From assembly GCA_046758745.1 (NCBI GenBank), contig JBHIAV010000005.1, positions 16,291 through 80,290 on the forward strand: a stretch of 64,000 nt of DNA, written 5' to 3'. Source of the stretch: Gemmatimonadota bacterium (GTDB taxonomy: Bacteria; Gemmatimonadota; Gemmatimonadetes; Palauibacterales; Palauibacteraceae). The notes below the pieces were generated by a model. That model worked only from the letters and a program-made list of their open reading frames with translations. It was not told where the DNA came from and searched no databases. Below are positions 4,919 to 26,328 of this stretch, in pieces (within the stretch, counting starts at the first letter, position 1; each line of letters opens with the position of its first letter). Position numbers and translations under genes: made by a program.

Positions 4919-5641
4919 CTACAGCTCGGCTCGCAGCGCCCTCGCCGCCCGGGCCCGATGGCTCAGGCGGGCCTTCACCTCCGGCGGGAGCTCGCCGAAC
5001 GTCTTGCCGTACTCCGGCACGACGAACAGCGGGTCGTAGCCGAACCCGCCCTCGCCGCGCGGCTCCTCGGCGATCCGGCCGTGCACGACGCCCTCGGCCA
5101 CCGCGGTCCGTGAGCCATCCACCAGGACGAGCGCGCACCGATAGTGCGCCGCCCGGCGATCCGCCGGCACGCCCTCGAGCCTTTCCAGCAGGTACGCGTT
5201 GTTGGCCGCGTCCCGTCCCAAACGCTCGGACCACTCGTCGGGGGCGAAGCGACGGGACCGGACGCCGGGCGCGCCGCGGAGCGCAGCCACGCACAGACCC
5301 GAGTCGTCGGCGAGGGTAGGCAGACCCGTGCGAGCGTGAAAATGCCGGGCCTTGGCGCGGGCGTTCTCCGCGAAGCTGTCGAACACCTCGATCGATGCTT
5401 CCTCGGCCCCGGGCCGAACGCCGATGTCGGTGAGAGAGACGAGCGCGAGCCCCTTGCCGCCGAGGAGGCCGCGAAGCTCGTTCAGCTTGTCGGCGCTTCG
5501 CGTGGCGACGAGAATCCTTCGACCGCGCGGCGGCCGCTTCTCCTCGGGGCTCCTGGGTTCGGCACGTCGGCCCCCGCGCCTGGACGCCTCCGGTGTCTCC
5601 GCTTCGCCCTTCAGATCACTCCTCGGCCCACAGGACCTCAT
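4919..5641 (-). CDS. rdgB: Non-canonical purine NTP pyrophosphatase (RdgB/HAM1)
   Basis: ILVATRSADK, ENARAKA, LADDSGL, GAPGVRS, GFGYDPLF, SHRARA. Start uncertain; conserved core begins ~5520. Confidence 0.88.
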   Translation of the reverse strand: MRSCGPRSDLKGEAETPEASRRGGRRAEPRSPEEKRPPRGRRILVATRSADKLNELRGLLGGKGLALVSLTDIGVRPGAEEASIEVFDSFAENARAKARHFHARTGLPTLADDSGLCVAALRGAPGVRSRRFAPDEWSERLGRDAANNAYLLERLEGVPADRRAAHYRCALVLVDGSRTAVAEGVVHGRIAEEPRGEGGFGYDPLFVVPEYGKTFGELPPEVKARLSHRARAARALRAEL

Positions 5642-6578
5642 CCTTCAGCTTCTCTCGCAGGCCGGGGTGCACGTTCCACATGTACACCCCCACGGTGAAC
5701 GCGGCGATGACGTTGCCGAGGAGGACCGACCACCAGGCGAGCTGCTCGAGGATCCAGTTGCCGAGCATCACGACCATCGCGATGAAGAACGTCTGCACCA
5801 CCACGAACATGAGGAGGAGGAGAAAGAGGATGGGCGGCGTACGCTCCGCCTGGGTGACGAGACCGGAGACGATCACGCCGAACACGAGGAACGCCGCGAG
5901 GTGGATCAGCGTGTATCCCAGTATGGTGGCCGCGGCGAAGTCGACGTTCCGGGCGGCGTCGGTACCGTGGAAGATCGCGGAGCCGAGCGCGGCCGGAGTG
6001 AAGAGGGGCCGTCCGGCCACAGAGTCCACGATGAGGAACCACACCGCCACGACGAACGCTCCGAGGAGTCCCGCCACGATCCCCTCCCGCAGGGTCCGGT
6101 GGGCCATGAGCTGCGCCCACACACCCGTCACCCCCGGCTCGGGGCTCGTCCAGTGCAGGTAGCCGACGATGACGAGGCCGGCGAGGACGTTCCCGAAAAA
6201 GACGGCCGGCCAGGCGGGGGCGGCCAGGATGTCCGTTCCGGACAGCACCAGCGAAGGGTAGAAGACGAGCGAGCAGGCGAAGAGGCCGTAGGCCGCTCCG
6301 AGCAGGAGATTCTTCGGGAGCCGCGTCACCTCGAACAGGAGGGAGGCCCCTATCCCCAGGATGAGGAAGGCGACGTAGTGGGCGGCCGTGTACAGGGCGA
6401 TCCGCAGCGACCCGCCCTCCACCCCCATCTGCCCCAGCAGGGCGCCTGAGAGGAAGGTGGGCGTGTGAAGCGGCTGCCCACGCGCCAGGTCGAGGAAGAG
6501 GAAGACGATGATGAGGACGGTCCCACCCAGCAGTCCCGCCATCACACCGTCCCACAGCGCCTTCCTGCTCAGCGTCAC
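5616..6578 (-). CDS. Uncharacterised integral membrane protein made of two homologous ~4-TM halves
   Basis: GTG 6578 overlaps the cyoE stop. Halves share G[VI]xAGLLG...D...GxPLxTP...YTxxH...W...GNV. Confidence 0.75.
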   Translation of the reverse strand: MTLSRKALWDGVMAGLLGGTVLIIVFLFLDLARGQPLHTPTFLSGALLGQMGVEGGSLRIALYTAAHYVAFLILGIGASLLFEVTRLPKNLLLGAAYGLFACSLVFYPSLVLSGTDILAAPAWPAVFFGNVLAGLVIVGYLHWTSPEPGVTGVWAQLMAHRTLREGIVAGLLGAFVVAVWFLIVDSVAGRPLFTPAALGSAIFHGTDAARNVDFAAATILGYTLIHLAAFLVFGVIVSGLVTQAERTPPILFLLLLMFVVVQTFFIAMVVMLGNWILEQLAWWSVLLGNVIAAFTVGVYMWNVHPGLREKLKDEVLWAEE

Positions 6579-7747
6579 GGAGCATCCTCGCGAGCCCTCA
6601 GGGCTCGACCGGTCTCCCCGACGGCCTCCTCCAGAAGCCGCTCGACCTCCTCCCGCATGGCGCGCCGATACGTGTGCACCAGCCCGCCCCCGATCACCAC
6701 GAGCAGGAAGGCGGGCGCCGCCATCAGCAGCACCATCCCCCAGAAGAAGCCCTGGCTCAGCTCCGGGCTCGACCCCTGGATGCATCCGGGGCATGCGAGC
6801 AGCTCTCCCGCCCCGGCCACGGATGCGGCCACGGCGGAACCCGCGCCCGGATCGAAGGTGAGAAGGAGGAGGAGTGCCGGAAGGTACACGAGCGACGCAC
6901 GGAAGAGGCCACGTGCGCGCCGCACATCGGCCTGGAGCGCGAAACGGAGGGCGCTCGTCAGGTATGCCGTTCCCAGCGCCACCGCTCCGAGGGCGTACAC
7001 CGCCCCGCCGAGCCCCAGCACGGCCGGGATGAGGCTCACCGGAAGGAGGGCGAGCGAGTAGCTCACCGCCTGCCTTCCCGTGCGGGCTCCGCACGGGTCC
7101 GCCACGCTCAGCGTGCGCAGCCCCGCCCGCCTGTAGTCCTCCCGATACAGCCACCCGAGCGCGAGGAAGTGCGGGAGCTGCCACAGGAAGAGGATGGCGA
7201 ACAGAGTGATGGCGCCGGGGCCGAGCTCCCCGGTCGCCGCGCTCCATCCGCCGACGGCGGGGAGCGCGCCCGGGACCGCCCCGACCAGGATGGCCAGCGA
7301 GCCGACCCGCTTGAGCGGCGTGTACGCGAAGTCGTACACGATCAGGGCCAGGGCCCCCAGCGCGGCGGTGAGCAGGTTCACGGCCACGGCGAGGTACAGG
7401 ACCCCTCCGGCCGCAAGAGCGAGGGAGAAGGCCATCGCCACGGCCGGCGACAGCCTTCCGTCGGGAAGCGGCCGGCGCCGGGTGCGGGCCATCCGCGCGT
7501 CCACGTCGCGCTCCAGCACCTGGTTCAGGGCGCTCGTGCCGCCACACACGAGCGCGATGCCGATGAGCGCCTCCAGGAGACCCGGCGCGCCAGCTGTGGA
7601 GCGAGCTCCCAGGAGATACCCGGCCGCGCTGGTCACCAGCACCATCAGGGTGATGCGCGGCTTCGTAAGGGAAAGGAGGTCGGCCGCCACGGACGTCCAG
7701 CCGGCCCGGCGGGAAGCCGCCGCCAGGGCCCCCGCCTCAGCGCTCAT
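6575..7747 (-). CDS. cyoE: Heme O synthase (protoheme IX farnesyltransferase) with extra C-terminal CxxC + TM segment
   Basis: LTKPRI, ALNQVLERDVDARMARTRRRPLP, YTPLKR, GAVPGALP, FLWQLPHF; extra tail ACPGC...FFWGMVLLM. Confidence 0.92.
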   Translation of the reverse strand: MSAEAGALAAASRRAGWTSVAADLLSLTKPRITLMVLVTSAAGYLLGARSTAGAPGLLEALIGIALVCGGTSALNQVLERDVDARMARTRRRPLPDGRLSPAVAMAFSLALAAGGVLYLAVAVNLLTAALGALALIVYDFAYTPLKRVGSLAILVGAVPGALPAVGGWSAATGELGPGAITLFAILFLWQLPHFLALGWLYREDYRRAGLRTLSVADPCGARTGRQAVSYSLALLPVSLIPAVLGLGGAVYALGAVALGTAYLTSALRFALQADVRRARGLFRASLVYLPALLLLLTFDPGAGSAVAASVAGAGELLACPGCIQGSSPELSQGFFWGMVLLMAAPAFLLVVIGGGLVHTYRRAMREEVERLLEEAVGETGRALRAREDAP

Positions 7748-7815
7748 CCGGTGGCCCCCGCGTCGACCCTACCGCGTTCACGTCGCTGCGCCTCACGTCG
7801 GAGTCCCGTCCTGTT

Positions 7816-8085
7816 TCAGTATTCCATCAGCACCAGGACGACGAGGATCGCCGCCGGCAGGAGGGGGGCGGCGGCCACGACCGAGACCAGCCTCGGCTCG
7901 AAGCGGAGGTGCATGAAGTACAGAGCCACGAGGAGCGCCTTCCAGATCGCCAGTCCGAGCAGCCCCAGGATCGTCACGGCGCGGGGGAGCCCCATGAAGG
8001 CGACCCCGAGCTCGACTACCGTGAGGAGGGCCAGCCCGCCGAACACCGCCAGATAAGGAGGCTGTCTCTTTCGTGCCTCTTCCAT
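7816..8085 (-). CDS. Cytochrome c oxidase subunit IV (CtaF-like)
   Basis: Three TM helices, LALLTVVE and KALLVALYFMHLRFE motifs. Confidence 0.85.
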   Translation of the reverse strand: MEEARKRQPPYLAVFGGLALLTVVELGVAFMGLPRAVTILGLLGLAIWKALLVALYFMHLRFEPRLVSVVAAAPLLPAAILVVLVLMEY

Positions 8086-8095
8086 GCCGGACTCC

Positions 8096-8755
8096 TCAGA
8101 TCAGGTATACGACGGTGAAAAGGATAATCCACACCAGGTCCACGAAGTGCCAGTACAGCCCGATGATCTCGACGCCCTGGTGGTCCTCGCGCGTGTAGCC
8201 TCCCCGGAACGCTCTCACCGTCACCCAGATCATCGAGATGACGCCGCAGGTTACGTGGAAGCCGTGGAAACCGGTCATCGTGTAGAAGGTGGCCCCGTAC
8301 AGCGCCCCCGAGGCCGCCGGGAGCGCGCCGTGCGCCACCTCCTCCGCCAGCGCGCTCCCCGGTGCGTAGCCGCTCGGAAGGAAGCCGTGCTGGGCGAGGT
8401 GAATGTACTCGTACACCTGCACCCCGATGAACGTCGAGCCGATGAGGACGGTCGCGATGAGGAACGTCTTCAGGCCGCGGAGATCGCCGGTCTCGATCGC
8501 GGCGAACGCCTTCACCATCGTCACCGAGCTGCAGATGAGGATGAAGGTGTTGATGGCGGTGACGGGAACGTTGAGGACCACGCCCGGGGCCGGCCACTCC
8601 CCGGCCGCCCCGAAGCGCAGGATGATGTAGGACCCGATCAGCCCGGTGAAGAACATCACCTCCGAGCAGAGGAAGATCCACATCCCCACCTTTTTGTCAT
8701 AGATGCCGAGCCCGCGCTCCCGGGGATGCTCGAGCGCCACCGCGTGCGTGCTCAT
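8096..8755 (-). CDS. ctaE: Cytochrome c oxidase subunit III (short 5-TM form)
   Basis: GMWIFLCSEVMFF, NTFILICSS, FYTMTGFHGFHV, GLYWHFVDLVW. Confidence 0.93.
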   Translation of the reverse strand: MSTHAVALEHPRERGLGIYDKKVGMWIFLCSEVMFFTGLIGSYIILRFGAAGEWPAPGVVLNVPVTAINTFILICSSVTMVKAFAAIETGDLRGLKTFLIATVLIGSTFIGVQVYEYIHLAQHGFLPSGYAPGSALAEEVAHGALPAASGALYGATFYTMTGFHGFHVTCGVISMIWVTVRAFRGGYTREDHQGVEIIGLYWHFVDLVWIILFTVVYLI

Positions 8756-10521
8756 GCGGGCGCTCCCTTCGCGTGCGCGGGGGACACGATGTCCGGCCGC
8801 TCGTTCTGCGCCAGCCAGTCACGCTCCATGTCCGGATGGCTGTACTCGTACGGGCCGTGGTACACGACGGGGATCTCCTTCCAGTTCAGGTGCTTCGGCG
8901 GCGACGGGGTCTGCCACTCCAGGGTGGTCGCGTTCCACGGGTTCGCCGGCGCCCTCTCCTTGCGGAAGAGCCCGTATAGGAAGTTCCCGGCGAAGAGGAG
9001 GCCGGAGAGGAAGAGTCCGAGCGCGCTCACCGTGACCAGGATGTTCGTGTCCTCCAGGCCGGCCAGGTGCTGGTACTGGGTGGGGTCGTACAGCCGCCGC
9101 ATCATCCCTTTCATGCCGAGCCCGTGCATCGGGAAGAAGGTCAGGTTGAAGAAGAGGAAGGTGAGGACGAAGTGGATCTTCCCCACCGTCTCGCTCATCA
9201 TCTTCCCGAACATCTTCGGGAACCAGTAGTAGAACGCCCCGAACAGGGCGAACAGGCTCCCGCCGAAGAGCACGTAGTGGATGTGAGCCACGATGAAATA
9301 GGTATCGTGGATGTAGATGTCCACCGGCGTGGCCGCCATGTACACCCCGCTCAGCCCTCCGATCACGAACATCATCACGAACCCGATGCCGAAGAGGCTC
9401 GGGGAGGTGAGCTGGATGTCTCCCCGCCACAGGGTACCCATCCAGTTGAACGTCTTGATGGCGGAGGGGACGGCGATCACCATGGTCGAGACCATGAAGC
9501 TCATGCCGAGCGTCGGGTTCATCCCGCTCTGGAACATGTGGTGTCCCCACACGATGAACCCGAGGAAGGCGATCCCGATGATCGCGAACACCATGCTGTG
9601 ATAGCCGAAGATCGGCTTGCGCGAACCGTTGGCGATCAGCTCGGAGGTGAATCCCATCGCCGGCAGGATGAGGATGTACACCTCCGGGTGGCCGAAGAAC
9701 CAGAAGAGGTGCTGCCACAGGAGCGGCTGTCCGCCCTCCGCCGGAAGGAAGAAGTGCGTGCCGATCGTCTGGTCGAACAGCAGCATGATCACCGCCGCCG
9801 CCAGGACCGGCATGGCCAGCAGCACCAGGATGGCCGTGATGAAGAGGGCCCATATCGACAGCGGTAGGCGGAACCAGGTCATGCCCGGCGCCCGCAGGTT
9901 GACGACCGTCGTGATGTAGTTCACCGCCCCGAGGAGCGAGCTCAGCCCGAGAACCAGGAGGCTGACGATCCACAGCTGCTGGCCGTACGACACCCCGCTC
10001 GCCTCCGGCATGGCGCTCAGCGGCGCGTACGACGTCCACCCTGCGCCGGCGGCTCCTCCCTCCACCGCGAAGCTCGCCAGCATGATGATGCCCGCCGGGA
10101 CGGCCACCCAGAAGGACATCATGTTGAGTCGCGGGAAGGCCATGTCCCGCGCCCCGATCTGGAGAGGGATGAGGTAGTTGGCGAACACGCCGACGAGCAG
10201 CGGCATGATGGCGAAGAACACCATGATCGTGCCGTGCATCGTGACGAGCGAGTTGTAGAACTCGGGGAGCACGAACCCCTGGTTGGCCATCGCCTCCGGC
10301 AGCAGGCGTCCGAGCGGCAACGGCCGGTCCGGCCAGGCGAGCTGGAAGCGCATCATCATCGCGAGCAGCCCGCCGACCAGTAGGAAGAAGAGGCTCATGA
10401 AGAGGAACTGTATCCCGATGATCTTGTGATCGGTCGAGAAGATGTACCTCCGGATGAACGGGAGCGGATGCTCCTCTTCGAGGATCGCCTGCCCCGTCGC
10501 CTCCGCTACGATAGTCGCCAT
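8752..10521 (-). CDS. ctaD: Heme-copper oxidase subunit I, A1 type
   Basis: STDHKIIG, TMHG, D-channel RDMAFPRLN, FWFFGHPEVY, WGHHMF, K-channel VPSAIK, VAHIHYV, GMMRR. Confidence 0.96.
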   Translation of the reverse strand: MATIVAEATGQAILEEEHPLPFIRRYIFSTDHKIIGIQFLFMSLFFLLVGGLLAMMMRFQLAWPDRPLPLGRLLPEAMANQGFVLPEFYNSLVTMHGTIMVFFAIMPLLVGVFANYLIPLQIGARDMAFPRLNMMSFWVAVPAGIIMLASFAVEGGAAGAGWTSYAPLSAMPEASGVSYGQQLWIVSLLVLGLSSLLGAVNYITTVVNLRAPGMTWFRLPLSIWALFITAILVLLAMPVLAAAVIMLLFDQTIGTHFFLPAEGGQPLLWQHLFWFFGHPEVYILILPAMGFTSELIANGSRKPIFGYHSMVFAIIGIAFLGFIVWGHHMFQSGMNPTLGMSFMVSTMVIAVPSAIKTFNWMGTLWRGDIQLTSPSLFGIGFVMMFVIGGLSGVYMAATPVDIYIHDTYFIVAHIHYVLFGGSLFALFGAFYYWFPKMFGKMMSETVGKIHFVLTFLFFNLTFFPMHGLGMKGMMRRLYDPTQYQHLAGLEDTNILVTVSALGLFLSGLLFAGNFLYGLFRKERAPANPWNATTLEWQTPSPPKHLNWKEIPVVYHGPYEYSHPDMERDWLAQNERPDIVSPAHAKGAPA

Positions 10522-10543
10522 GCGATCGTACCTCTCTCCGTTG

Positions 10544-11224
10544 TCACTCCGCGGCGGCTGCCACGGCCTCGCTTCTCTCCCGGTACCACGCCTCGTAGGA
10601 GGCGGCGTCGTGGACCTTCACGGAGGCCCGCATCCTGTAATGACCCGGCCCGCACAGCTCGGCACAGCCGATCTGGAAGTCCCCCGTCTCGGTGGCCTGG
10701 AACCAGATCGGGATGGTCATGCCCGGGACGGCGTCCTGCTTCACCCGTAGCACCGGGATGAAGAAGGAGTGGATCACGTCCTCGGAGGTCAGTCGGACGA
10801 TGATCGGTTCGCCCACCGGGATGTGGAACTGATTGCGGATCGTGAAGTCGTCTTCGTTGCCGGGGATCCGGTCCGTTCCGGGGTAGGTGACGTTCCACTC
10901 GAACTGCTTGGCCGTCACGCTCAGGGTGAGGGCGTCCTCCGGAAACGAGTCGGGGCCGCGGATGTCCGCCCAGATGCGTCCGCTGTAGATGCCGAGGAGG
11001 ACCACGGTGACCGCGGTCACCGATGTCCACGTCACCTCGGCCCGCACATCGCCGTGCGTGTACCGCGCGCGGTGCCCCTCGCGCCGCCGGTATCTGAAGA
11101 CGAACCACAGGACGCCCGTTTCGACGATCACGAAGGCGATGCCGGTGACCCAGGCGATGATCCAGAAGAGCCGGTCGATGTCGACGCCCTGCGTCGAGGC
11201 GTTGATCGGTAGCGACCAGTCCAT
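10544..11224 (-). CDS. ctaC: Cytochrome c oxidase subunit II (CuA, no fused cyt c)
   Basis: Two TM helices, AKQFEW, DVIHSF...KQDAVPG, CAELCGPGHYRM. Confidence 0.94.
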   Translation of the reverse strand: MDWSLPINASTQGVDIDRLFWIIAWVTGIAFVIVETGVLWFVFRYRRREGHRARYTHGDVRAEVTWTSVTAVTVVLLGIYSGRIWADIRGPDSFPEDALTLSVTAKQFEWNVTYPGTDRIPGNEDDFTIRNQFHIPVGEPIIVRLTSEDVIHSFFIPVLRVKQDAVPGMTIPIWFQATETGDFQIGCAELCGPGHYRMRASVKVHDAASYEAWYRERSEAVAAAAE

Positions 11225-11309
11225 GCCCTCTCCCCTTTTCAGTCGCGATCGAGGCGGGGCGCCGCGCGTCGGACGAAAGCCCGAGATGCGCGGCGTCCCC
11301 GGCCGAAGC

Positions 11310-12161
11310 TCATCGCGCGGCCGCCGCGTGGACCCCGTGCAGGTCGATCGGCTCGCCGAGCGGCACGACGGCATCGGCCGCCATGTCACTGCGGAAGGTG
11401 AAGCTGATCTCCTTCGTCTCCTGCGCGCCCACCGTGACGTTTTGGGTGAGCGTGCCGTACAGCTCGTGCCACGCCTCGACGACGTAGTCTCCCGGCGGCA
11501 GCCCGTCGAGGGTGAAGGATCCGTTCGACCCGGAGACGGAGTGGAAGGGGTGCTCCGTGACGCCGATGTAGGCCTCCATCCACCCGTGCACGTCGCACTT
11601 CACCGGGACCATGATCTCGGGGAAGGCGAACTTTTTCGTCGTCTCCATTCCCTCACGCGGCTGGCTCACGTTGAAGCCGCGGTTCTCCGTCGGCTGGGTG
11701 TTGATGTTGTGCAGCAGCGGGTCGCTGTTCCTGATGAGGAGCGGCTGCCCGGCCTGGATCCCCAGCACGTGCGGATGGTACCGGCAGCCATCCTGGTCGA
11801 TCACGACTGGCTCCGAGGGTGGCGCGAAGCTCTGGCTGAGCCCGGACTTCACGTACACGAAGACATTGGCCAGCCGCCCGTCCGTCACCACCACGCCCTC
11901 GGTCATGGGCGGGCCTTCCTCGTACTTGACAGCGCAGTCCGGCTCCTCGGCCATGTCGATCGGCTGCGCGGCAGGCGGCGTACCCTCGAAAGCAATGTGG
12001 CCGCGAATCGTGGCGGCGACCGCCGGATCGACGGCCGGCGCGGCCGATGCGGCTTCGCCGCCTTCCTCCGCGCCCGCGCTCTCGCCCTCGCCTCCACCGC
12101 CGCACGCCATGAGGCCCACCAGAAGGACCCCGGTCGCCAGCATCCTCTCTCGATCTCTCAT
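11310..12161 (-). CDS. Lipoprotein with cupredoxin-like and carboxypeptidase-regulatory-like domains
   Basis: Lipobox LMAC; IDQDGCRYHPHV, NSDPLLHN, KCDVHGWM, GSFTLDGLPPGDYVVEAWHE. Confidence 0.75.
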   Translation of the reverse strand: MRDRERMLATGVLLVGLMACGGGGEGESAGAEEGGEAASAAPAVDPAVAATIRGHIAFEGTPPAAQPIDMAEEPDCAVKYEEGPPMTEGVVVTDGRLANVFVYVKSGLSQSFAPPSEPVVIDQDGCRYHPHVLGIQAGQPLLIRNSDPLLHNINTQPTENRGFNVSQPREGMETTKKFAFPEIMVPVKCDVHGWMEAYIGVTEHPFHSVSGSNGSFTLDGLPPGDYVVEAWHELYGTLTQNVTVGAQETKEISFTFRSDMAADAVVPLGEPIDLHGVHAAAAR

Positions 12162-12207
12162 CCCTTGCCTCCGAAGAAAGAGCCTCCGACTCTCGGCAGA
12201 GCCGTTC

Positions 12208-14579: not shown

Positions 14580-14697
14580 CGTCGCATCCTCCAGGTGGCT
14601 CCCCGCCTCCTCGCGCCGCCGCGCCGCCGGAACCGCCGGCGCGAACCCTCACGCTCTCCCGCATGGGGCCGCGCGGCACGACCGATCGGGACGCGGC

Positions 14698-15495: not shown

Positions 15496-15505
15496 GTCCG
15501 GTTCC

Positions 15506-18696: not shown

Positions 18697-18808
18697 GTCG
18701 CCCTGGACACCCGCACCGGAGGCACCGCGACCCTACCCGGCCGCGCGCCGGGGTGGCTCCATGACGCGGAGGGCCCGGCACGGCTGTGTGGGATCGGAGC
18801 TCCCCTCA

Positions 18809-20818
18809 CTACTCGCCCATCGGCCCGGGAACGTCGGCCTCCTTCCTCATCAGCTCCTCGACGGCGCGCCTCGCCTCCTCGGGGGTGGCCGTCTTGAAGT
18901 CCACCGGACAGCGCTCCACCTGACGCTCGATGTCGCGGATCGGGCAGCGCGTTACCCCCGCCGCCTTCGCCTCATCGATGAACTTCCGCATCTCGGGACT
19001 CACCCCATCCAGTCCCGCCGCCTCCGCCCGCGCCTGCTTCGCCTTGAGCTCGTTGAACATCACGAGCATGGTGTCCATGTCGAACTCGTCGGCTTCGATC
19101 ATCGCCTGCTTGTTGTCGTCCATCACCATCGTGGTGACACGCCACATGCCGTGGCGCCGGGCAAAGCGCTCCACCGTGTTGCGGGCGAGAGGGCGCGCGA
19201 TGAGCGGGACCTGGCGGAGACGGTCGTACGCCTCGTGCGTCCACACGACCGGGTCTTCCTCGGTCCGCTCGCGCACGGTGGCGTGTCCGGAATAGGGGCA
19301 CTTCGTCTCCACGGGTCGGGGCGACTCGAAGACGTCCGCGTCGTGCGTCTCCACGACGGTGCGCTTCATCGCCTCCTCCGCCTTCACCTCGGCCAGGGCG
19401 AGCTCCTCGGCATCACCGACACCCATGATGAGCTGCATGTGGGTGGGGAGTAGCCTGCGGATCGCTCGGTCCAGCCACTCGTTCGTGACGGTCGGCAGTT
19501 CGGGCGGCGTGTGCTCCACATTCTCGAGAACGAACTCCTCGACCGCCTTTCGGGCGATCCCGAGCGCAAAGGGAGGGACCCGAAGGATTCGCACCTCGGC
19601 CTCCGGCGCCCACTCCAGACCGGTCTCGCCGTCTTCCTCGATCCATGGGATCTCGTCGGGTCGCACGTCCGTCGTCCCGATGAGGAGCACGCTGCACGGC
19701 GCGAGGCGGATCAGGTTCTCGGCCTGCGACCCCATCTCCGTGCCGTCGACGCGGTGCGCCCCGTGTCGGGCCAGCACCAGCAGAGTCGGCTCGACCTCCT
19801 CGGCCCACTGGAGCACCACCTGGAAGGGCTTCCCGATGAGGATCTGCGTCGCGAGCTTGACGTCCGGGTACTCCTTCGCCATCGCCTCGGCCCGCTTGAG
19901 GTTGGCCTGGCAGAGACGGAGCAGACCCTTGTCGATGATGTTGTTGTGCAGCTCCTCCTGCTCCTCGAACTTGAAGACCTTCGAGGCCTGCACGGAGAGG
20001 ACGTCCTTGATGTTGTTGAAGACGACGTGGTGGTACTCGACGTCGAAGGCGCTGCACACGAAGAGCTTGGCCCCGAACTCTCGCGCCATCTCCAGCGCCA
20101 TCCGCATCGCCTTGTAGCAGTAAGACGATCCATCAATGCACACCATCCACCGTCCGCCCTGTAGCGGCCGGTCGTCACGCACGATGAGGACATCCTTGTG
20201 CACCGAACGGACCACGCGGGAGACCACGCCGCCGAGCTGCGAGTAGGGCTGACGTCCGATGCCGTGCGCCCCTATGGCCAGGAGGTCGTAGCGTCGCCCG
20301 GAAGAGCCGGCGAGCTTCCGCTCCGAGTCTTCTTCCTCCGCCACGAGGCGACCGGTCTCGCTGATCTTCACGTCGCTGCGAACGACGTCGCCGCCGTCGT
20401 ATCGGGCGGCGATGTTCGGATCGAACCCGATGAGGCTCGGGAGCTGGCCGCGGCCCTCGTTCGCCTCCCGGATGATCTCCTCGAAGTTGATCCCCTCGAG
20501 GAGCTGCCGGGTGAGCGGCGCACCCGCCTCCGAGCAGCGCTGGGCGACCCGGTCCAGAAAGCTGTCCGCGATGAGCTGGAGACCCTTCTCGATCAGCTTG
20601 TCGTGAATCTTCCGCTGTCGCTTGATCTCCTCGGAAGTCTGGAAGCGAGCGGGGAGCCCGCTCTCCAGCTGGCGGAAGCGAATGTCGTGGAGCCGCGCTG
20701 CGTACACGTGGTTCGCCGTGATGCGGCCGCCCGACCGCGAGCACAGCTCGATCGCGCGCTCGAGGGCCCAATCAGAGTGGACCGAGTTGTCCACGGGAAC
20801 GAGCAGCTCACGGTACAT
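18809..20818 (-). CDS. Multidomain universal stress protein (2x USP + 2x PCP-reductase-type domain, CP motifs)
   Basis: MYRELLVPVDNS...DLLAIGAHG...LGGV; MVCIDGS...LLVLARHG...MGSQAENLIRLAPCSVL; WAPEAEVRILRVP; WTHEAYDRLRQVP. Confidence 0.85.
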   Translation of the reverse strand: MYRELLVPVDNSVHSDWALERAIELCSRSGGRITANHVYAARLHDIRFRQLESGLPARFQTSEEIKRQRKIHDKLIEKGLQLIADSFLDRVAQRCSEAGAPLTRQLLEGINFEEIIREANEGRGQLPSLIGFDPNIAARYDGGDVVRSDVKISETGRLVAEEEDSERKLAGSSGRRYDLLAIGAHGIGRQPYSQLGGVVSRVVRSVHKDVLIVRDDRPLQGGRWMVCIDGSSYCYKAMRMALEMAREFGAKLFVCSAFDVEYHHVVFNNIKDVLSVQASKVFKFEEQEELHNNIIDKGLLRLCQANLKRAEAMAKEYPDVKLATQILIGKPFQVVLQWAEEVEPTLLVLARHGAHRVDGTEMGSQAENLIRLAPCSVLLIGTTDVRPDEIPWIEEDGETGLEWAPEAEVRILRVPPFALGIARKAVEEFVLENVEHTPPELPTVTNEWLDRAIRRLLPTHMQLIMGVGDAEELALAEVKAEEAMKRTVVETHDADVFESPRPVETKCPYSGHATVRERTEEDPVVWTHEAYDRLRQVPLIARPLARNTVERFARRHGMWRVTTMVMDDNKQAMIEADEFDMDTMLVMFNELKAKQARAEAAGLDGVSPEMRKFIDEAKAAGVTRCPIRDIERQVERCPVDFKTATPEEARRAVEELMRKEADVPGPMGE

Positions 20819-21133
20819 CGACACCTCGAATCCAGGGGTGCCGCCGCCCAAGTGGGAGCGCGGGAGGCGCCGGGCGTGCGGGAGGGGCGAGCCGCAGGGC
20901 CGGTGGTGACGCGGCTCCGCCCGCGAAGCAGCGCGCGACGGTCTCGGAGCCGGATCTCCACCTCAGCCCCACGAGCCTCTCGACCCGTCGTTCCCGAGGC
21001 CCACTTCGATTCCGGCGTAGGGCGCGCGCCGCGCGCGGCGGGCCCGCCTCTATCGGTGAGACGGGCCCCCGCCCGTCCCGAATTCGACTCGAAAGGAGCG
21101 CCTCTCCCCTGACCCGGGAGTGCGCTCGGCGTG

Positions 21134-21164
21134 AGTATATAGCCGCGGCGGCGACAGCTGTCAA
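21134..21164 (-). promoter_or_regulatory. Sigma-70-type promoter for the USP-oxidase operon
   Basis: Minus strand reads TTGACA-17 nt-TATATACT, about 310 nt upstream of the USP start. Confidence 0.65.
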
Positions 21165-21259
21165 ACGCCGCCAAACAGGCGCTCTCGAGGCGCGGACGAC
21201 CCCCCGATCCACCGCTCTCCGCGCCCGAGGAACGCTCTCGCCGGCGGGTTCGGATGGGC

Positions 21260-22012
21260 TCACGCAGCCGCTCCGGCGAGCCGGCGGGCGAGGGTCGGCG
21301 CCGCCGCGAGAACAAGCCCCGCCCCCAGCAGGACGACGGCGATGGGCCCGATCCACGAGGCGAGGGGACCGACCCCGCCGGTACCCGTCAGCGCCCGGGT
21401 GACCGCAGGGGACCCCGCCGAGACAGCGAGCAGGCCGTCGTGGAGCGGGCCGAATGGGCTGAGGTGTTCCACCGTCTCGGCCCATGTTCCGGGCCCGGCC
21501 GCGCGGAACACCCCGCTCAGGTGGAGCGCGAAGAGCGACGCCGCCGCGCACGCGAGGGCGCCCTCGGCGAGCGAGCGCACGAGCGCCGCGATGACACTTC
21601 CGAGGAGGTTTCCGAAGAGAAGCGCGAGCAGCAGCCCCGCCGCGGCGCCGAGGCCCGGCGCCCACGAGGCTCCGGAGACCGCGAGCAGGATGAGGAGGAG
21701 GGGCAGGAGCTGGAGCGCGTCCAGGGCCGCCGCCGCGATCGTACGCTCGGCGAGCCAGGCGCGCTCGCCATACCCGGTCAGCCTCACTTTCTCCACCCAG
21801 CCGGACGCCCCCTCTCGCACGAGCGGGATGCAGCTCCCAAAGGTGGCGAAGAAGACGATGAAGACGCTGAACACGGCCGCCCGGTGCGGTGCGGCCGCCG
21901 GACTCGCCGCCACCGGGAGCAGAAGCGCGACGGGGACGATCACGTTCCAGGCGAAGAGTCGGCGACGCGTGAGGGCGATCCGCCACTCCAGGGCCCACAC
22001 GCGCCCGATCAC
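21260..22012 (-). CDS. ABC-2-type transporter permease
   Basis: About 6 TM helices, LVREGASG..EKVRLT, HLSPFG; follows an ABC ATPase. Confidence 0.7.
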   Translation of the reverse strand: MIGRVWALEWRIALTRRRLFAWNVIVPVALLLPVAASPAAAPHRAAVFSVFIVFFATFGSCIPLVREGASGWVEKVRLTGYGERAWLAERTIAAAALDALQLLPLLLILLAVSGASWAPGLGAAAGLLLALLFGNLLGSVIAALVRSLAEGALACAAASLFALHLSGVFRAAGPGTWAETVEHLSPFGPLHDGLLAVSAGSPAVTRALTGTGGVGPLASWIGPIAVVLLGAGLVLAAAPTLARRLAGAAA

Positions 22013-22043
22013 GGGTGCTCCCTCCCCCGACCCTCTCTGTCCC

Positions 22044-23060
22044 TCACGGGCCGCCGCGAGCGGAGAGACCCGTCCCCCGCAGCGCCGTCTCGTCGGGGGC
22101 CGGGGCCGCCCCGTCGAGGGGAACCCCGGCCAGCTCCAGGAAGACGTCGGCAAGGTTCGGCTCGTGCACCCGAATGGAGCGGGGCTCGCACCCGGCCTCG
22201 AGCAGGCGTGCGCACAGCTCCGGGAGCGCGGCGCCCCCCGCGGGTGAAGCGAAGCGTGCTCCCTGCGGATACAGTGCCAGCGTCCGCACCTGCGGCTGCG
22301 GTTCGAAGCTCCTGCTCGGCATCTTTCCCGACACCTCGATCACGGTCTCCTTCGCCAGCCCGGCGATGAGGTCGCGGGGAGGGCCGTCCGCGATGAGCCT
22401 TCCGCCGTGCAGGAAAGCGACCCGGCTGCACGCCGTCTCCACGAACGCCGGATCGTTGGAGGCCACCAGGGCCGCCGCTCCTCTCGACGCCGCATCGGCC
22501 ATGGCCGCTCGCAGCGCCGCCACGCCGAGGGGATCCAGCCCGAGCGTGGGCTCGTCGAGCAGGAGGAGGTCGGCTGATGCGGCCACCGCCTCTGCGAGGG
22601 CGAGACGGCGGCGCATCCCGTGCGAGTAGATCGATACCCTTTCCACAGCGCGGTCGGCGAGGCCGAAGTCGCGCAGCGCGCTATCCAGCGCACCGGCCGC
22701 TGCCTCGCCCCCGTGTCCCCTGAGGCCGAGCAGACGGAGAACGTTCTCGCGCCCCGGGAGGGATTCCTGAAACGGAGTGCGGTCGAAGACGACGGCAACC
22801 CGCCGGCGGAGGTGCGACGCCGAGTCGGAGGGCTCGTTCGGGAAGAGGCGTGCCGAGCCCTCGGCCGGAGGGAGCACCCCGGCTACGATGCGGAGAAGGG
22901 TCGTCTTCCCGGAGCCGTTCGGCCCCATCACTCCGAGGACTTCCCCGGCCGCCAGCTGGAGCGTCAGCCCCACCAGAACAGGCGGCCCGTCGGCGTAGCG
23001 GTGGCCCAGCCCGCACAGGGCCAGGACGGGTCCCACCGGGACGGACGGACCTGTCGTCAT
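22044..23060 (-). CDS. ABC transporter ATP-binding protein (exporter type)
   Basis: GPNGSGKTT, YSHGMRRRL, LLLDEPTLGLD, EPNLADVFLELAG. Confidence 0.88.
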   Translation of the reverse strand: MTTGPSVPVGPVLALCGLGHRYADGPPVLVGLTLQLAAGEVLGVMGPNGSGKTTLLRIVAGVLPPAEGSARLFPNEPSDSASHLRRRVAVVFDRTPFQESLPGRENVLRLLGLRGHGGEAAAGALDSALRDFGLADRAVERVSIYSHGMRRRLALAEAVAASADLLLLDEPTLGLDPLGVAALRAAMADAASRGAAALVASNDPAFVETACSRVAFLHGGRLIADGPPRDLIAGLAKETVIEVSGKMPSRSFEPQPQVRTLALYPQGARFASPAGGAALPELCARLLEAGCEPRSIRVHEPNLADVFLELAGVPLDGAAPAPDETALRGTGLSARGGP

Positions 23061-23416
23061 GGGACGAGCGTGTGACCGTCCTCGTCATACACGGTGATCG
23101 CGTCCACCGGACAGGCGGCGCACGCCCGCAGGAGACGCTCTCGCCCCACCGCCTCCGGAGTCGTCAGCACCGCGATCTCTTCCGCGTCCAGCGCGAACGC
23201 CGCCGGCGCTTCGGCGATGCACTCCGCGAAGCCGACGCACAGGCCCCGGTCGATCGCCACGCGAAGCCTCCCGACCCGGCGGTCGCACCGCGCATCCGCG
23301 ATGGCTTCCGGCATCCGGCCCGCAGCGAGGACCGGCGACTGTCCCGGCGCGGCCTCCTCCCGCCGGGCAGCCGCCGACCCGGCACCGCGAGGGGGAGGGG
23401 GGACGGATGCCGTCAC
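23057..23416 (-). CDS. Single-cluster ferredoxin (probably [3Fe-4S])
   Basis: IDRGLCVGFAECIAEAPAAF...ACAACPVDAI; second Cys position is Phe. Start is 23416 (GTG) or 23314 (ATG). Confidence 0.8.
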   Translation of the reverse strand: MTASVPPPPRGAGSAAARREEAAPGQSPVLAAGRMPEAIADARCDRRVGRLRVAIDRGLCVGFAECIAEAPAAFALDAEEIAVLTTPEAVGRERLLRACAACPVDAITVYDEDGHTLVP

Positions 23417-23862
23417 ATCCCCTCGAGGCCGAGCTCCCGACGTGCCCGATCCATGATGGCGGGAGTGATCTCGGCGATGCCCCGCTCCCTCGCATAGTCG
23501 ATGTAGATGCGCTTTACCATCCCGCGCACGAAGGAGGGGACGGCCCCCAGCCGTTCGATCGCCTCCACGCTCCAGCGCACCGTGGCGGCCGACGGCTCGG
23601 GCGGTGCGGTATCCGCGAACGCCTTCTCCCGGCCCTCCGCCAGAGAGCCCCGCACCATCTCGAAGGGCTGTTCGGGCACCGCACGCCCCCCGATCCGGAC
23701 CCCGAGGGAGGCCACGAGCTGCGTCTCCATGGGGTTGGTCAGCAGTCCGACCCGGTGGTCGCACGACGGGCAGCGGAAGGCGGCCGCCAGCGTGCCGTCC
23801 CCCGGGAGGTCCCGCTCCTCGAACACCATCTGCTCGTCGCACTCCACGCACAGGAACTTCAC
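23413..23862 (-). CDS. Zn-ribbon (CxxC...CxxC) protein with C-terminal PCP-reductase-type domain
   Basis: MKFLCVECDEQM...FRCPSC...TNPMETQLV; WSVEAIERLGAVPSFVRGMV...YARERG..EIT. Confidence 0.8.
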   Translation of the reverse strand: MKFLCVECDEQMVFEERDLPGDGTLAAAFRCPSCDHRVGLLTNPMETQLVASLGVRIGGRAVPEQPFEMVRGSLAEGREKAFADTAPPEPSAATVRWSVEAIERLGAVPSFVRGMVKRIYIDYARERGIAEITPAIMDRARRELGLEGM

Positions 23863-24746
23863 GCCGCCTCCTCGCCCCCCAGGAGGGTCGCGGCGATCGT
23901 CGCCAGTGCCCTGCCCGCCGGACGATCGAGGGCGCCGAGCGGGTCTCCCTTCTCCGCCAGCGCGGCGCTCTCGGGATCAAGCGGGACGCGCCCGAGCAGC
24001 GGGATTCCGAACAGCCCGGCCAGAGACTCACCGGCATCGCCTCGGAAAAGAGGCCGCACCGCTCCACACTCCGGGCAGGCGTACCCGGACATGTTCTCGA
24101 TCACACCCAGGGCGGGCATGCCCCGCTCCCGGGCCTCGCGGAGGGAACGCTCCACGCTGGCGCGGGACGCGTCCGAGGGGATGGTGACGACCAATGTCCC
24201 CGAGAGGTCGGGAACGAGTTCCGCGAGGTCGATCATGCGCCCCGTACCGGGCGGAAGATCGATCAGAAGGAGATCCAGCTTCCCCCACTCCACGTCCCCC
24301 AGGAACTCGCGCAGTGCCCCCTGCTCCTGCGCTCCCCGCCACACGAAGCTCTCCGAGGCGGGCTCCTTCCAGGCGAGAGGTCGTCCCGCCTCCAGAAGCA
24401 GCTCCATCGACATGACCCGCACTCCCGCCGGGCTCACCGCCGGCACCACCGCCGATTGCTCCACGCGGAGCTCTCCCGGCGACACCCCCGACAGGCGGGC
24501 GGCCGTCGGGCCGTGAAGGTCGGCGTCGAGCAACCCGACCCGGGCCCCTGCGCGAGCGGATTGGGCGGCCAGCAGGGCTGCCACGAAGCTCTTCCCGACC
24601 CCGCCCTTTCCGCTCATCACGGCCACACAGCGTTCCACCAGCTCGAGGCGCCGGCGCACTTTTTCGCGCTGCGCGGTCACCTGAGCGACGAGGTCGGACC
24701 GGTCCCGGCCGAGGAGCTCCGAGTAGGTGCGGAAACCGATCGTCAC
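23859..24746 (-). CDS. Mrp/NBP35 (ApbC) Fe-S cluster carrier ATPase
   Basis: MSGKGGVGKS, LDADLHGP, VWRG, WGKLDLLLIDLPPGTG, IENMSGYACPECG, LGRVPLDP. Confidence 0.88.
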   Translation of the reverse strand: MTIGFRTYSELLGRDRSDLVAQVTAQREKVRRRLELVERCVAVMSGKGGVGKSFVAALLAAQSARAGARVGLLDADLHGPTAARLSGVSPGELRVEQSAVVPAVSPAGVRVMSMELLLEAGRPLAWKEPASESFVWRGAQEQGALREFLGDVEWGKLDLLLIDLPPGTGRMIDLAELVPDLSGTLVVTIPSDASRASVERSLREARERGMPALGVIENMSGYACPECGAVRPLFRGDAGESLAGLFGIPLLGRVPLDPESAALAEKGDPLGALDRPAGRALATIAATLLGGEEAA

Positions 24747-25210
24747 AGGTCCCAGCCGGCGCGGGCCAGCATCCACAGGTTGATGAGCACGACGACCACG
24801 GCCGTCACGTAGAGCGCCGCCGGGAGGCGGGCCTCCGCAACGGGCAGGAAGCCCCGCCGGACGAGGGCGGGGAGGCGGAGCGCGTGAAGGAGCCACACCG
24901 CCCGCGCGAACCACGGATTCTGCCAGCGCCACAACCCCCAGAAGACGACGGCCACGATGGCCGCGCCGAGGAGGAGCCACACCCAGACCGCACCGCGCTC
25001 GGCCGGCAGGACGCCGGCCCGAGCCGCGGCGATGACGGCCGCCTCGTACAGGAGTCCGACGTGCAGATAGACAAACGCCGCCTGCCGGAACTTGACGGCC
25101 CGCGCCGGCGCGTGAGGCAACCTTCGCGCCCGGCGAGCCGCCGGCTCGGCCGAACCGGGCCCGTCCGCCACCGCGCCTTCCGGACTCTCCGCCGCTCGGC
25201 TCCCCGCCAT
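24743..25210 (-). CDS. Hypothetical 4-TM membrane protein
   Basis: KFRQAAFVYLHVGLLYE...NLWMLARAGWDL; stop overlaps the Mrp start. Confidence 0.65.
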   Translation of the reverse strand: MAGSRAAESPEGAVADGPGSAEPAARRARRLPHAPARAVKFRQAAFVYLHVGLLYEAAVIAAARAGVLPAERGAVWVWLLLGAAIVAVVFWGLWRWQNPWFARAVWLLHALRLPALVRRGFLPVAEARLPAALYVTAVVVVLINLWMLARAGWDL

Positions 25211-25422
25211 ACTCTCTTCCGTCTGGGGTCTTTCGCTCACCTTACCGGTACAGCTTGCCGGGGCGCCCGCTGTTCCGCAACAGCGGCTGTCCCGCCGCGC
25301 CGCCGCGCGCTAGTTTTCTGGGTGTAGGGTGCCGCGAAGCGGCGCTTTCTCTGCCTGGGGTGCGGCGAGCCGGCACGTGGCAGTGCACACGCGTCCCGCG
25401 GCATGGAACATGAGGAGGCGAC

Positions 25423-25626
25423 GTGTCCCTCATCGGCTTTCACAGGGTTCTGATCGGGAGCGCGATTCTCTTCTGCGCGCTCTTCGCAGTGTGGGAGGGG
25501 TGGCGATACCTGCAGGCGGGAGGCGCGGCCGAGCTCACCCTCGCCGTCGTGTTCGGAGTCCTCGCCTGCTCCCTCGCGTACTATCTGGCGAGGCTCAACC
25601 GCTTCCTCGGACGCGAATCTTCTTGA
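25423..25626 (+). CDS. Small 2-TM membrane protein
   Basis: GAGGAGG RBS; MSLIGFHRVLIGSAILFC...YYLARLNRFLG. Confidence 0.65.
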   Translation: MSLIGFHRVLIGSAILFCALFAVWEGWRYLQAGGAAELTLAVVFGVLACSLAYYLARLNRFLGRESS

Positions 25627-25695
25627 GGGCGGCGCGTCCCCGGCGACCCGCCGCCCGCGCCGGGGCTGCCGACTGACCGAGGCTTCCGAGCCGGC

Positions 25696-26328
25696 GTGAG
25701 CGACGAGGTCGGCGCCGGCGGGAGTCCCGCCTGGCTCCTCGGCGCGGCGGCGCTCTTCCTCCTGCTCCTGGCGGCTCTCGTCGCGACCTCCCTGTGGCGC
25801 CGCGAACCTCCGGCCTTTCCCATCACCCACCGGACGCCTCAAGAGGCGGGAGACTCGCTCGGCCGAGGCCTCGTGACGCTCGACGCACGGGACCGGCGCG
25901 CCTGGGTGCGCTTCGACTTCTCCCGCTCCGCGGTCGTGGAGAGCGGGGAGCCGGCGGGCTGGGATGTGGCCGCTCGCCGCCATCGATTGATCGTCAACGG
26001 TGGCCAGGGCTTCGCCGGGCACGGAGGCGTGATCGAGGTCACCGGCACGCCGTACGAGGCGGTGGGCGAGGCACCCGACGAGGGGTACACGGGATCCAGG
26101 GTCACCGCGGGAGGCGACTCGGTCAACTCCGTCTTCGACGGCTGGTACCGCTACGGCTTCTTCTCTCACCTGCTCGAGCCGAAGCCGGCCACGTACATCG
26201 TGCGAACGGCAGACGGAAGATATGCGAAGCTGCGCATCCTCAGCTACTACTGTCCGGGAGCGGAGCCCGGCTGCCTCACCTTCGAGTACAGCTACCAGGG
26301 AGCGGGCGGAACGAGGCTGGCGCCCTAG
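25696..26328 (+). CDS. HmuY-family heme-binding protein with N-terminal TM anchor
   Basis: WVRFDFS, GWDVAARR..LIVNGG, WYRY..SHLLEP, YIVRTADGRYAKLRILSYYC. Confidence 0.8.
   Translation: MSDEVGAGGSPAWLLGAAALFLLLLAALVATSLWRREPPAFPITHRTPQEAGDSLGRGLVTLDARDRRAWVRFDFSRSAVVESGEPAGWDVAARRHRLIVNGGQGFAGHGGVIEVTGTPYEAVGEAPDEGYTGSRVTAGGDSVNSVFDGWYRYGFFSHLLEPKPATYIVRTADGRYAKLRILSYYCPGAEPGCLTFEYSYQGAGGTRLAP

Follow-up and report, generated by a model that had tools for sequence, protein, structure and literature searches.

The locus described here raises the question of what a bd-like oxidase subunit does when its gene is embedded, together with genes for cytochromes c, in an array that also carries an aa3-type heme-copper oxidase operon. 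We analyzed a stretch of 64,000 nucleotides (referred to below as the window) from contig JBHIAV010000005.1 of a Gemmatimonadota genome (assembly GCA_046758745.1), which is 3.1 Mb in size and 87% complete. The window has a G+C content of ~70% and contains many spurious open reading frames (ORFs), and genes were chosen by third-position G+C and family searches; families were called with Pfam and NCBIfam, start codons were checked and gene starts were inferred. The array comprises 19 genes, all on the minus strand, at positions 5616–25210. Their order, as claimed in a preliminary description of this DNA, was confirmed in these searches: a small membrane protein is followed by Mrp, a Zn-ribbon protein, a ferredoxin, an ABC transporter pair, a USP protein, a radical SAM enzyme, a CydA-like protein, the cytochromes c, a cupredoxin lipoprotein, CoxII, CoxI, CoxIII, CoxIV, a heme O synthase and an internally duplicated membrane protein.

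The reading that we favor, with moderate confidence, is that the array encodes a bd-like oxygen reductase fed by cytochromes c and a cupredoxin, that it includes this enzyme's own genes for tetrapyrrole/Fe-S maturation and regulation, and that the enzyme is genetically coupled to the aa3 oxidase, probably sharing donors with it. The island would then consist of three units, i.e., the bd-like complex, the downstream aa3 oxidase and an upstream cytoplasmic accessory set.

The CydA-like gene (15506–17305; 599 residues) has an alternative GTG start at 17338, which overlaps the stop codon of the radical SAM gene. Its product matched PF01654 with 78.4 bits (cut-off 26.2) over profile positions 4–240 of 418 only. 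When it was aligned with Geobacillus CydA (5doq_A; phmmer 3.2e-9), H61 paired with His21, which we take to be the equivalent of E. coli His19, and E148 paired with Glu108. A second alignment (9r2g_A) paired H229 with the helix-5 histidine, presumably the ligand of heme b558. Residues H61, H171, H229, H381, H530, E79 and E148 were invariant in 25/25 orthologs and most of them were kept in 23 distant homologs; H61 was also kept in the paralog found in this genome and in 91% of the distant homologs. The CydA-like family as a whole is large, with 1187 representative clusters at E<=1e-3 and 227 at E<=1e-30.

An AlphaFold2 model of the CydA-like protein, built with 49 sequences (pLDDT 86.9, pTM 0.85), had 14 long helices, and its ten best Foldseek matches were all CydA chains. 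Because the structural alignment (VIA-align) spans model residues 43–580 and residues 3–504 of 7ose_A (Z 33.8, 355 aligned residues, rmsd 3.7), the modeled protein retains the whole CydA fold, with inserted helices at the place of the Q-loop. In the Q-loop region, where the Pfam match stops, the model shows only short periplasmic segments (195–223 and 360–390). No CydB family matched any ORF of the array in Pfam searches, in agreement with the earlier claim of a CydB-less bd-like oxidase gene. After the CydA chains, ActC of alternative complex III (ACIII) and PsrC were found at Z 16–20 over ~230–330 residues, the match to ActC having Z 20.2, 320 aligned residues and rmsd 4.6. This likeness may mean that the CydA and NrfD folds are structurally related in a general way.

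Three genes for c-type cytochromes follow. The first encodes a membrane-anchored diheme cytochrome c (14698–15495; PF13442/PF00034 in two stretches, two CxxCH motifs) and the second a monoheme cytochrome c with an N-terminal multi-helix membrane domain (13773–14579; PF13442). The third (12208–13821, ATG at 13821) encodes a diheme cytochrome c joined to an EB_dh domain, i.e., a periplasmic heme-b domain of the NxrC/EbdC-like kind, and a C-terminal anchor (PF00034, PF09459), and resembles "alt-NxrC" proteins; it scored 102 bits against TIGR03477, under the 170-bit cut-off. The preliminary description had counted three cytochromes c plus a separate EbdC-like protein. All of these domains are present, but one fused polypeptide accounts for both the third cytochrome c and the EbdC-like protein. 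Counted by Pfam matches and motifs, the module has five c hemes in all, as well as a heme b domain and a copper centre.

Modeling of complexes, which had been put forward earlier as a check, predicted a contact between the CydA-like protein and the monoheme cytochrome c with an ipSAE of 0.73, as compared with 0.00 for the best control. This value was reached by 58/80 solved complexes and by 2/110 mismatched pairs, counts that are only rough since own alignments were used. The runs agreed in at least 47% of contacts, and the partner had a pLDDT of at least 74. The predicted interface involves CydA-like residues 316–384, which include the inserted helices and a conserved loop, and residues 30–68 of the cytochrome. 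The model supports the monoheme cytochrome c as a predicted subunit of the CydA-like protein.

The copper centre is that of the lipoprotein encoded at 11310–12161, which has a lipobox-like LMACGGG sequence and a CarboxypepD_reg-like beta-sandwich. Pfam searches of this protein gave a CarboxypepD_reg domain only and matched no cupredoxin family. Four residues, His152, Cys190, His193 and Met196 (numbering of the alignment), were invariant in 17 orthologs and paralogs. The AlphaFold2 model (pLDDT 84.1) had a chain of copper nitrite reductase (NirK) as its top Foldseek match (E 2e-6), with further matches to amicyanin, plastocyanin and pseudoazurin down to E 4e-4. The four invariant residues and the Foldseek matches bear out the earlier designation of this protein as a cupredoxin, and, as modeled, it is a type-1-copper (blue-copper) protein. 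Its gene distribution places it in the bd-like unit, because it is missing from a cox-only locus and is duplicated in a paralogous module elsewhere in the genome (both described below).

Taken in this way, the first unit would be a complex of the CydA-like protein, the diheme and monoheme cytochromes c, the diheme-c/EB_dh protein and the blue-copper lipoprotein. Electrons from bc-type complexes or periplasmic donors would pass to the c hemes and copper; the monoheme cytochrome would dock on the CydA-like helices predicted to replace the Q-loop, and electrons would move on to the b-type hemes of the CydA-like subunit, where O2 would be reduced.

Modules of this kind have been reported before. 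Lucker et al. (2013) found the module genes conserved between Kuenenia, Nitrospira and Nitrospina, suggested an "alternative complex III"-like role and described the Nitrospina bd-like protein with 14 helices (PMC3578206). In the work of Mundinger et al. (2019), bd-like_3 together with alt_NxrC_2 and two membrane cytochromes c was within the 40 genes of highest transcription (PMC6606698). These two papers agree with the claim that the bd-like/cytochrome c/EB_dh module is known from nitrite oxidizers. Yu et al. named the set of a bd-like protein, two cytochromes c and a periplasmic cytochrome b "TO_1" (bioRxiv 10.1101/2021.11.15.468770), and Murali, Gennis and Hemp assigned proteins of this sort to the OR-N family of the bd superfamily, with 14 helices in N1 and N2 and frequently no second such gene in N2 operons (bioRxiv 10.1101/2021.01.16.426971). 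Two comparative papers, one of them PMC12342949, call the function and subunit composition of bd-like complexes unproven.

The first unit shares with TO_1 of Nitrospira, Nitrospina, Kuenenia and Ca. Manganitrophus a 14-helix bd-like subunit, here predicted to lack the Q-loop, monoheme and diheme membrane cytochromes c, a periplasmic anchored heme-b protein (EB_dh/NxrC-like), and cupredoxin-like and zinc-finger proteins, a likeness judged from the published parts list. It differs in that no nxrAB genes stand alongside (no nxr genes were found within the window, and an NXR-like beta subunit occurs in 2/151 genomes of the phylum sample described below), in the A1 aa3 operon downstream, in the Mrp, ferredoxin, USP and radical SAM genes upstream and in the host phylum. 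With the OR-N family it shares the CydA fold, the His19 equivalent, the predicted lack of a quinol site and, as in OR-N1 and OR-N2, 14 helices; the single cydA-like gene per operon is as in OR-N2. This placement follows the published description of the family.

Among better known enzymes, the canonical CydAB quinol oxidase has the same fold of subunit I, whereas the array lacks CydB, its Q-loop region is unmatched by Pfam and the partners are c-type cytochromes rather than quinol. The cbb3 oxidase (CcoNOP) is alike in that a membrane catalytic subunit is served by anchored mono- and diheme cytochromes c, and the array cytochromes match PF13442; however, the catalytic subunit of the array is of the bd type and not a heme-copper protein.

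By its gene content, the bd-like core module is itself of an already known, uncharacterized kind. In contrast, its context, i.e., the combination of bd-like module, aa3 oxidase and accessory set, appears to be undescribed: as the preliminary description had supposed, no account of the full architecture was found in the literature searched. That search also returned no paper linking Gemmatimonadota with bd-like enzymes, although the supplementary phylum tables of Murali et al., which lay outside it, may list OR-N there; "Gemmatimonad" is absent from the main text of that paper (bioRxiv 10.1101/2021.01.16.426971). One further paper mentions Gemmatimonadota and bd-like in unrelated places (PMC12569097).

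The aa3 operon begins directly after the lipoprotein gene. CoxII (10544–11224; PF00116/PF02790) has the CuA motif CAELCGPGHYRM and no CxxCH, i.e., no heme c domain. CoxI (8752–10521; PF00115, 520 bits) contains FFGHPEVY in its translation, and we take this motif (GHPEV, helix VI) to be the A1 signature. CoxIII (8096–8755; PF00510) and CoxIV (7816–8085; PF03626) follow, and the GHPEV motif of CoxI, the CuA-type CoxII and CoxIII are all in place for the A1 heme-copper oxidase claimed earlier. The last two genes encode the heme O synthase CtaB/CyoE (6575–7747; PF01040, 180 bits) and a membrane protein with an internal duplication (5616–6578; self-match of 34% over 168 residues, no Pfam family above cut-off). 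Of the 390 residues of CtaB, the Pfam UbiA match covers 36–282; the ~100 residues beyond it at the C-terminus (window positions 6575–6900) include a CxxC motif and one additional hydrophobic helix. The second unit would be a dedicated A1 aa3 oxidase that probably uses the same c-type and copper carriers as the bd-like complex, so that the two would form two oxygen-reducing branches under one regulation.

A CydA-like scan of species genomes gave at least 584 relatives, and synteny was counted on the best 80 of them, which is not a random draw; these 80 were all from Gemmatimonadota. Window proteins were compared with the 80 loci by tblastn, and a gene was counted only at loci where the flank suffices. 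On the cox side, cox2 was present at 60/60 loci, cox1 at 55/55 (56/56 at a flank of at least 6.5 kb), cox3 at 55/55, cox4 at 53/55 and ctaB at 25/49. Within the bd-like unit the diheme cytochrome c was found at 70/70 loci, the monoheme cytochrome c at 66/66, the EB_dh protein at 62/62 and the lipoprotein at 59/60. The upstream genes gave 56/56 for Mrp, 58/58 for the Zn-ribbon protein, 55/59 for the ferredoxin, 60/60 for USP and 75/76 for radical SAM. The ABC-2 exporter pair is, on these counts, accessory and outside the core, because its ATPase was present at 16/55 and its permease at 16/58 related loci only. The small membrane protein that opens the array (24743–25210, ATG at 25210; no Pfam or NCBIfam family) likewise had tblastn matches in only part of the related loci.

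An even sample of the phylum (151 genomes including G000, 149 of high quality; CydA-like threshold E<=1e-40) gave a similar picture. The CydA-like gene was found in 43/151 genomes. By comparison of coordinates, the USP-PCP_red gene lay on the same contig, not more than ~3.5 kb from it, in 43/43, and at the thresholds used neither gene was found in the other 107 genomes, save for a partial USP match of 40% identity in G048. Cluster-type CoxI was 6–7 kb downstream of the CydA-like gene, on the same contig and strand, in 40/43; the three exceptions, all broken by contig ends, are G116 and G149, where CoxI is on another contig, and G135, where the contig ends inside the cluster. Linkage of the bd-like module and the aa3 operon in relatives, which had been named as a check, thus held at 56/56 loci for cox1 and in 40/43 genomes. 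Two genomes of one genus, G065 and G124, have the cox operon without the CydA-like module and without the USP gene; the accessory set is tied to the bd-like unit because these cox-only genomes lack both USP and CydA-like. In 43/43 genomes the Mrp, Zn-ribbon-PCP_red, ferredoxin, USP-PCP_red and radical SAM-PCP_red genes travel with CydA-like, and as far as gene linkage goes the supposition of an upstream accessory line dedicated to the module was upheld as well. Judged from these distributions, the block is inherited as a unit in roughly a third of the sampled Gemmatimonadota, and its colinear recurrence in relatives puts the arrangement far outside what chance would give.

It is unlikely, in our estimate, that the three parts are simply neighbors, i.e., independent accessory, bd-like and cox operons that were acquired or inherited as one island, with no shared donors or supercomplex and with general stress and Fe-S genes upstream. 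Such an explanation would fit the non-coding gap with a promoter-like site before the USP gene, the weak terminator-like hairpin after the EB_dh gene, the natural separability of the units (cox-only genomes and the paralogous module) and the patchy distribution of the block, which was found in 26/82 genera. However, several families share the gene order and strand, with junction lengths in the tens of bases, the accessory genes and CydA-like co-occur in 43/43 genomes and, apart from the G048 match, are both missing from the other 107, PCP_red domains occur nowhere else in the genome, and cluster-type CoxI forms a distinct identity class, its orthologs being at least 66% identical and other A-type copies at most 54%.

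The junctions themselves are short. Projected onto the related loci, the gap between the EB_dh and lipoprotein genes had a median of 17 nt and a maximum of 114 (n=61), and that between the lipoprotein gene and cox2 a median of 21 nt and a maximum of 207 (n=59); the gaps between modules are as small as those inside modules. From the tight junction with its median of 21 nt, we infer that the lipoprotein gene and coxII may be co-transcribed. Among the sequencing runs listed for this stretch, four, all from one study, were of DNA and none of RNA. "Many" overlapping stop and start codons had been noted before, which was overstated; in our own gene models, 5 to 7 of 18 junctions show overlaps of a few bases. 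The weak terminator-like hairpin (12201–12184; five pairs and a T-rich tail) is in the 43-nt spacer between the EB_dh and cupredoxin genes and could attenuate read-through into cupredoxin and cox. The largest intergenic gap, 441 bp, is 5' of the USP gene. It holds a single exact TTGACA-N17-TATATA site (21164–21136, minus strand); the promoter announced in the preliminary description comes down to this promoter-like sequence match. The TTGAC core recurs in 5/9 aligned upstream regions. A consensus promoter scan of the array gave one site against 0.9 expected, and the TTGACA-N17-TATATA site was not among its output.

What the upstream genes might contribute can be judged from their families. The Mrp protein (23859–24746; PF10609, 215 bits) is an Mrp/NUBPL-type P-loop Fe-S cluster carrier by family and is the third paralog in the genome, the other copies being on contigs C29 and C54 (39–40% identity); it scored 219 bits with MrpORP and 129 bits with ApbC of NCBIfam, both under cut-off. 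The next protein (23413–23862) combines a Zn-ribbon (CxxC-x21-CxxC) with a C-terminal PCP_red domain, which is BchB C-terminal-like (PF08369, 48.9 bits). A small ferredoxin of 67 residues with a single 4Fe-4S cluster (23057–23260, GTG at 23260) was recognized from PF13370/PF13459 matches on the C-terminal 57 residues of a long ORF. The ABC ATPase (22044–23060; PF00005) and ABC-2 permease (21260–22012; PF01061) genes come before the 441-bp gap. Beyond it are the genes for a cytoplasmic protein of 669 residues with two USP and two PCP_red domains (18809–20818; PF00582 118 bits, PF08369 54 bits) and for a radical SAM/SPASM enzyme of the AhbD/NirJ clade with a C-terminal PCP_red domain (17335–18696; PF04055, PF13186, PF08369; CxxxCxxC motif). 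All four PCP_red matches of the genome fall within the array, where they are spread over three proteins.

The USP-PCP_red protein is 70–81% identical across families. In several genomes of one genus (relatives including G004, G040, G050, G058 and G069) its gene contains one in-frame TGA, and in other families the match comes in two pieces inside one long open frame, which suggests an insertion of ~100–240 bases; these odd frames could be due to gene splitting, codon recoding or faulty assembly. An Atlas search gave hints of USP+PCP_red proteins in Nitrospinota and Pseudomonadota.

NCBIfam matches identify PCP_red as the domain at the C-terminus of BchB, and in protochlorophyllide reductase this domain contacts the tetrapyrrole substrate. 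Enzymes of the AhbD/NirJ clade act on propionate side chains of iron tetrapyrroles. The array enzyme has the radical SAM + SPASM architecture of AhbD, NirJ and NirJ2; however, its top NCBIfam matches, NirJ2 with 293 bits and AhbD with 286 bits, are well below the cut-offs of 500 bits, which makes it a member of neither equivalog, and it carries the extra PCP_red domain. We considered and rejected a role as a general heme b synthase: a ferrochelatase gene and a ChdC-like gene are located elsewhere in the genome, so that ordinary heme b can be made without the radical SAM enzyme, and the radical SAM gene is confined to cluster carriers. A literature search for PCP_red/PF08369 gave nothing relevant.

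Family membership suggests roles in heme and Fe-S assembly and in sensing for these upstream genes. A tetrapyrrole/Fe-S maturation set is favored because the radical SAM clade acts on iron tetrapyrroles, PCP_red is of the BchB type and the radical SAM enzyme is not the heme b synthase. The third unit would serve the first, its most likely task being the synthesis or insertion of a modified tetrapyrrole. In this scheme the radical SAM enzyme would receive clusters and electrons from Mrp and the ferredoxin, and regulation by nucleotide sensing would fall to the tandem USP protein. A bolder version is that the bd-like complex forms one machine with aa3, either as a two-headed supercomplex or as an ACIII-like feeder acting via the copper lipoprotein, and that the bd-like subunit needs a so-far-unknown tetrapyrrole made by the radical SAM enzyme and handed over by the PCP_red proteins. 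We regard this as quite improbable. If it were true, the need for a special tetrapyrrole would explain why no OR-N enzyme has yet been characterized.

Outside the array, the genome offers a second copy of the bd-like module. On contig C12 (L088:5335–18760), two cupredoxin lipoproteins, a CydA-like protein (54–56% identity), a diheme cytochrome c, a monoheme cytochrome c and a diheme-c/EB_dh protein are encoded together, preceded by genes for a plastocyanin/sulfocyanin-like protein, a cytochrome c, two unknown proteins and a porin-like protein and followed by UvrA. Paralogs of this type were found in 4/151 genomes, all of which have the main block too. There are also a canonical cydA (contig C57, 485 bits) and three further CoxI genes, i.e., on C31 one of caa3 type with a heme-c CoxII, on C61 one of aa3 type and on C15 a distant one. 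For a genome of 3.1 Mb, a respiratory chain with four CoxI genes, a canonical cydA and two bd-like modules has an unusual degree of branching; the caa3-type copy has a fused CoxI–III frame and the distant CoxI type is accompanied by a small CuA subunit. Cytochrome b genes occur at three places and there is one NrfD gene (C14), all outside the array.

These genes bear on whether the bd-like module is an oxidase at all. It could instead be an ACIII-like oxidoreductase that takes electrons from quinol, or from a periplasmic donor, and delivers them through cytochrome c or cupredoxin to the downstream aa3 oxidase. We regard this as the main rival to the favored reading, if rather doubtful. Downstream of the module, on the same strand, is the aa3 operon, whose CoxII lacks a heme c of its own; the five c hemes of the module, together with its heme b domain and copper centre, would make a long electron wire. 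ACIII clusters commonly have an oxygen reductase downstream (PMC12342949), so that the array has an analog in act genes followed by oxidase genes; in Flavobacterium johnsoniae, for example, where ACIII is followed by caa3 (PDB 6btm), a multi-heme membrane module is likewise directly upstream of an A-type oxidase operon. The "alternative complex III"-like role proposed by Lucker et al. and the presence of the module in anaerobic Kuenenia (PMC3578206) point the same way, as does the likeness of the CydA-like model to the quinol-site subunits ActC and PsrC. However, these Z 16–20 matches may reflect a mere common helical-bundle arrangement, and the array differs from ACIII in that it has neither an ActB-like molybdopterin/Fe-S subunit nor an NrfD-family ActC/F, its catalytic subunit being of the bd superfamily. 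The Q-loop appears to be lacking and no alternative quinol site is known, whereas the active-site histidine and one channel glutamate are conserved. In addition, three cytochrome b genes and one NrfD gene are already at hand in the genome, the paralogous module on C12 has no adjacent oxidase, and the aa3 operon occurs without the module in G065 and G124.

Several points weigh against the favored reading of a dedicated bd-like oxygen reductase coupled to aa3. The C12 module has no cox, USP, radical SAM or Mrp genes beside it, and the aa3 operon is alone in 2/44 genomes that have its ortholog. The cox-less C12 module and the cox-only genomes therefore show that physical or obligate functional coupling is not required. 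The genomes of the synteny sample are kin, and the counts are not independent events. In the CydA-like protein, the position of 5doq_A Glu101 is occupied by Tyr141. The radical SAM, Mrp and EB_dh proteins score below NCBIfam equivalog cut-offs, so that their reactions are putative. Finally, the module is kept in the strictly anaerobic Kuenenia, a poor fit for an oxidase (PMC3578206), and according to this paper and one of the two comparative papers neither O2 reduction nor any other activity has been measured for an OR-N/TO_1 enzyme.

A metagenome scan with a distant homolog (P0158, 33% identical) found two loci, L095 and L096, both of unassigned taxonomy. In these two loci, tblastn of window proteins found no neighbor match but an ABC ATPase. 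In L096, the locus that was annotated, the CydA-like gene is flanked by TruD and arginine-dihydrolase genes, and none of its neighbors is a cytochrome, USP, radical SAM or cox gene.

A further role proposed for related proteins is that of a membrane anchor, in which an alt-NxrC-like protein and the bd-like subunit tether a periplasmic enzyme of the type II DMSO-reductase family (NXR/pNar-like), as suggested for Nitrospira and Nitrospina (PMC6606698, PMC3578206). This genome does have such an operon on contig C53 (L090:2269–8000), encoding a molybdopterin subunit of the type II DMSO-reductase family, an Fe-S subunit, a NarJ-like chaperone and a gamma subunit. The gamma subunit is a diheme-cytochrome-c/EB_dh fusion and is 34% identical to the EB_dh protein of the array. 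However, the beta subunit was found in 2/151 genomes (G000 and G008; E<=1e-60) and the module in 43/151, and G008 is not among the 43 carriers. On this distribution the anchor role was rejected, and we consider it highly improbable.

The genes around the array can be described briefly. Upstream, an HmuY-like heme-binding lipoprotein is encoded on the plus strand (25696–26328; PF14064, 52 bits), and beyond it is HemC, porphobilinogen deaminase (26828–27784, minus strand; PF01379 260 bits, PF03900); Pfam searches confirmed both the divergent HmuY and the hemC gene noted previously. Opposite-strand upstream matches to the HmuY-like protein were found in 19/80 related loci (tblastn table). On the 3' side of the array, an ECF-type sigma factor (3143–3784) and a zf-HC2 anti-sigma-like protein (1741–3231) are encoded on the minus strand, and a gene with tandem glyoxalase domains (3734–4879, plus strand) is between this pair and Ham1.

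The role of bd-like complexes has been open since the first Nitrospira genome, and in nitrite and manganese oxidizers the expression of bd-like (OR-N/TO_1) genes ranks with the highest of all respiratory genes (PMC6606698; bioRxiv 10.1101/2021.11.15.468770). The locus analyzed here separates the bd-like module from nitrite oxidoreductase and ties it genetically to a standard aa3 oxidase, in a phylum that is heterotrophic and common in soils and oceans. It provides the first genomic context for free-standing PCP_red domains outside chlorophyll synthesis, and it points to a fixed maturation and regulatory set of radical SAM, PCP_red proteins, Mrp and ferredoxin that may be required to make the enzyme.

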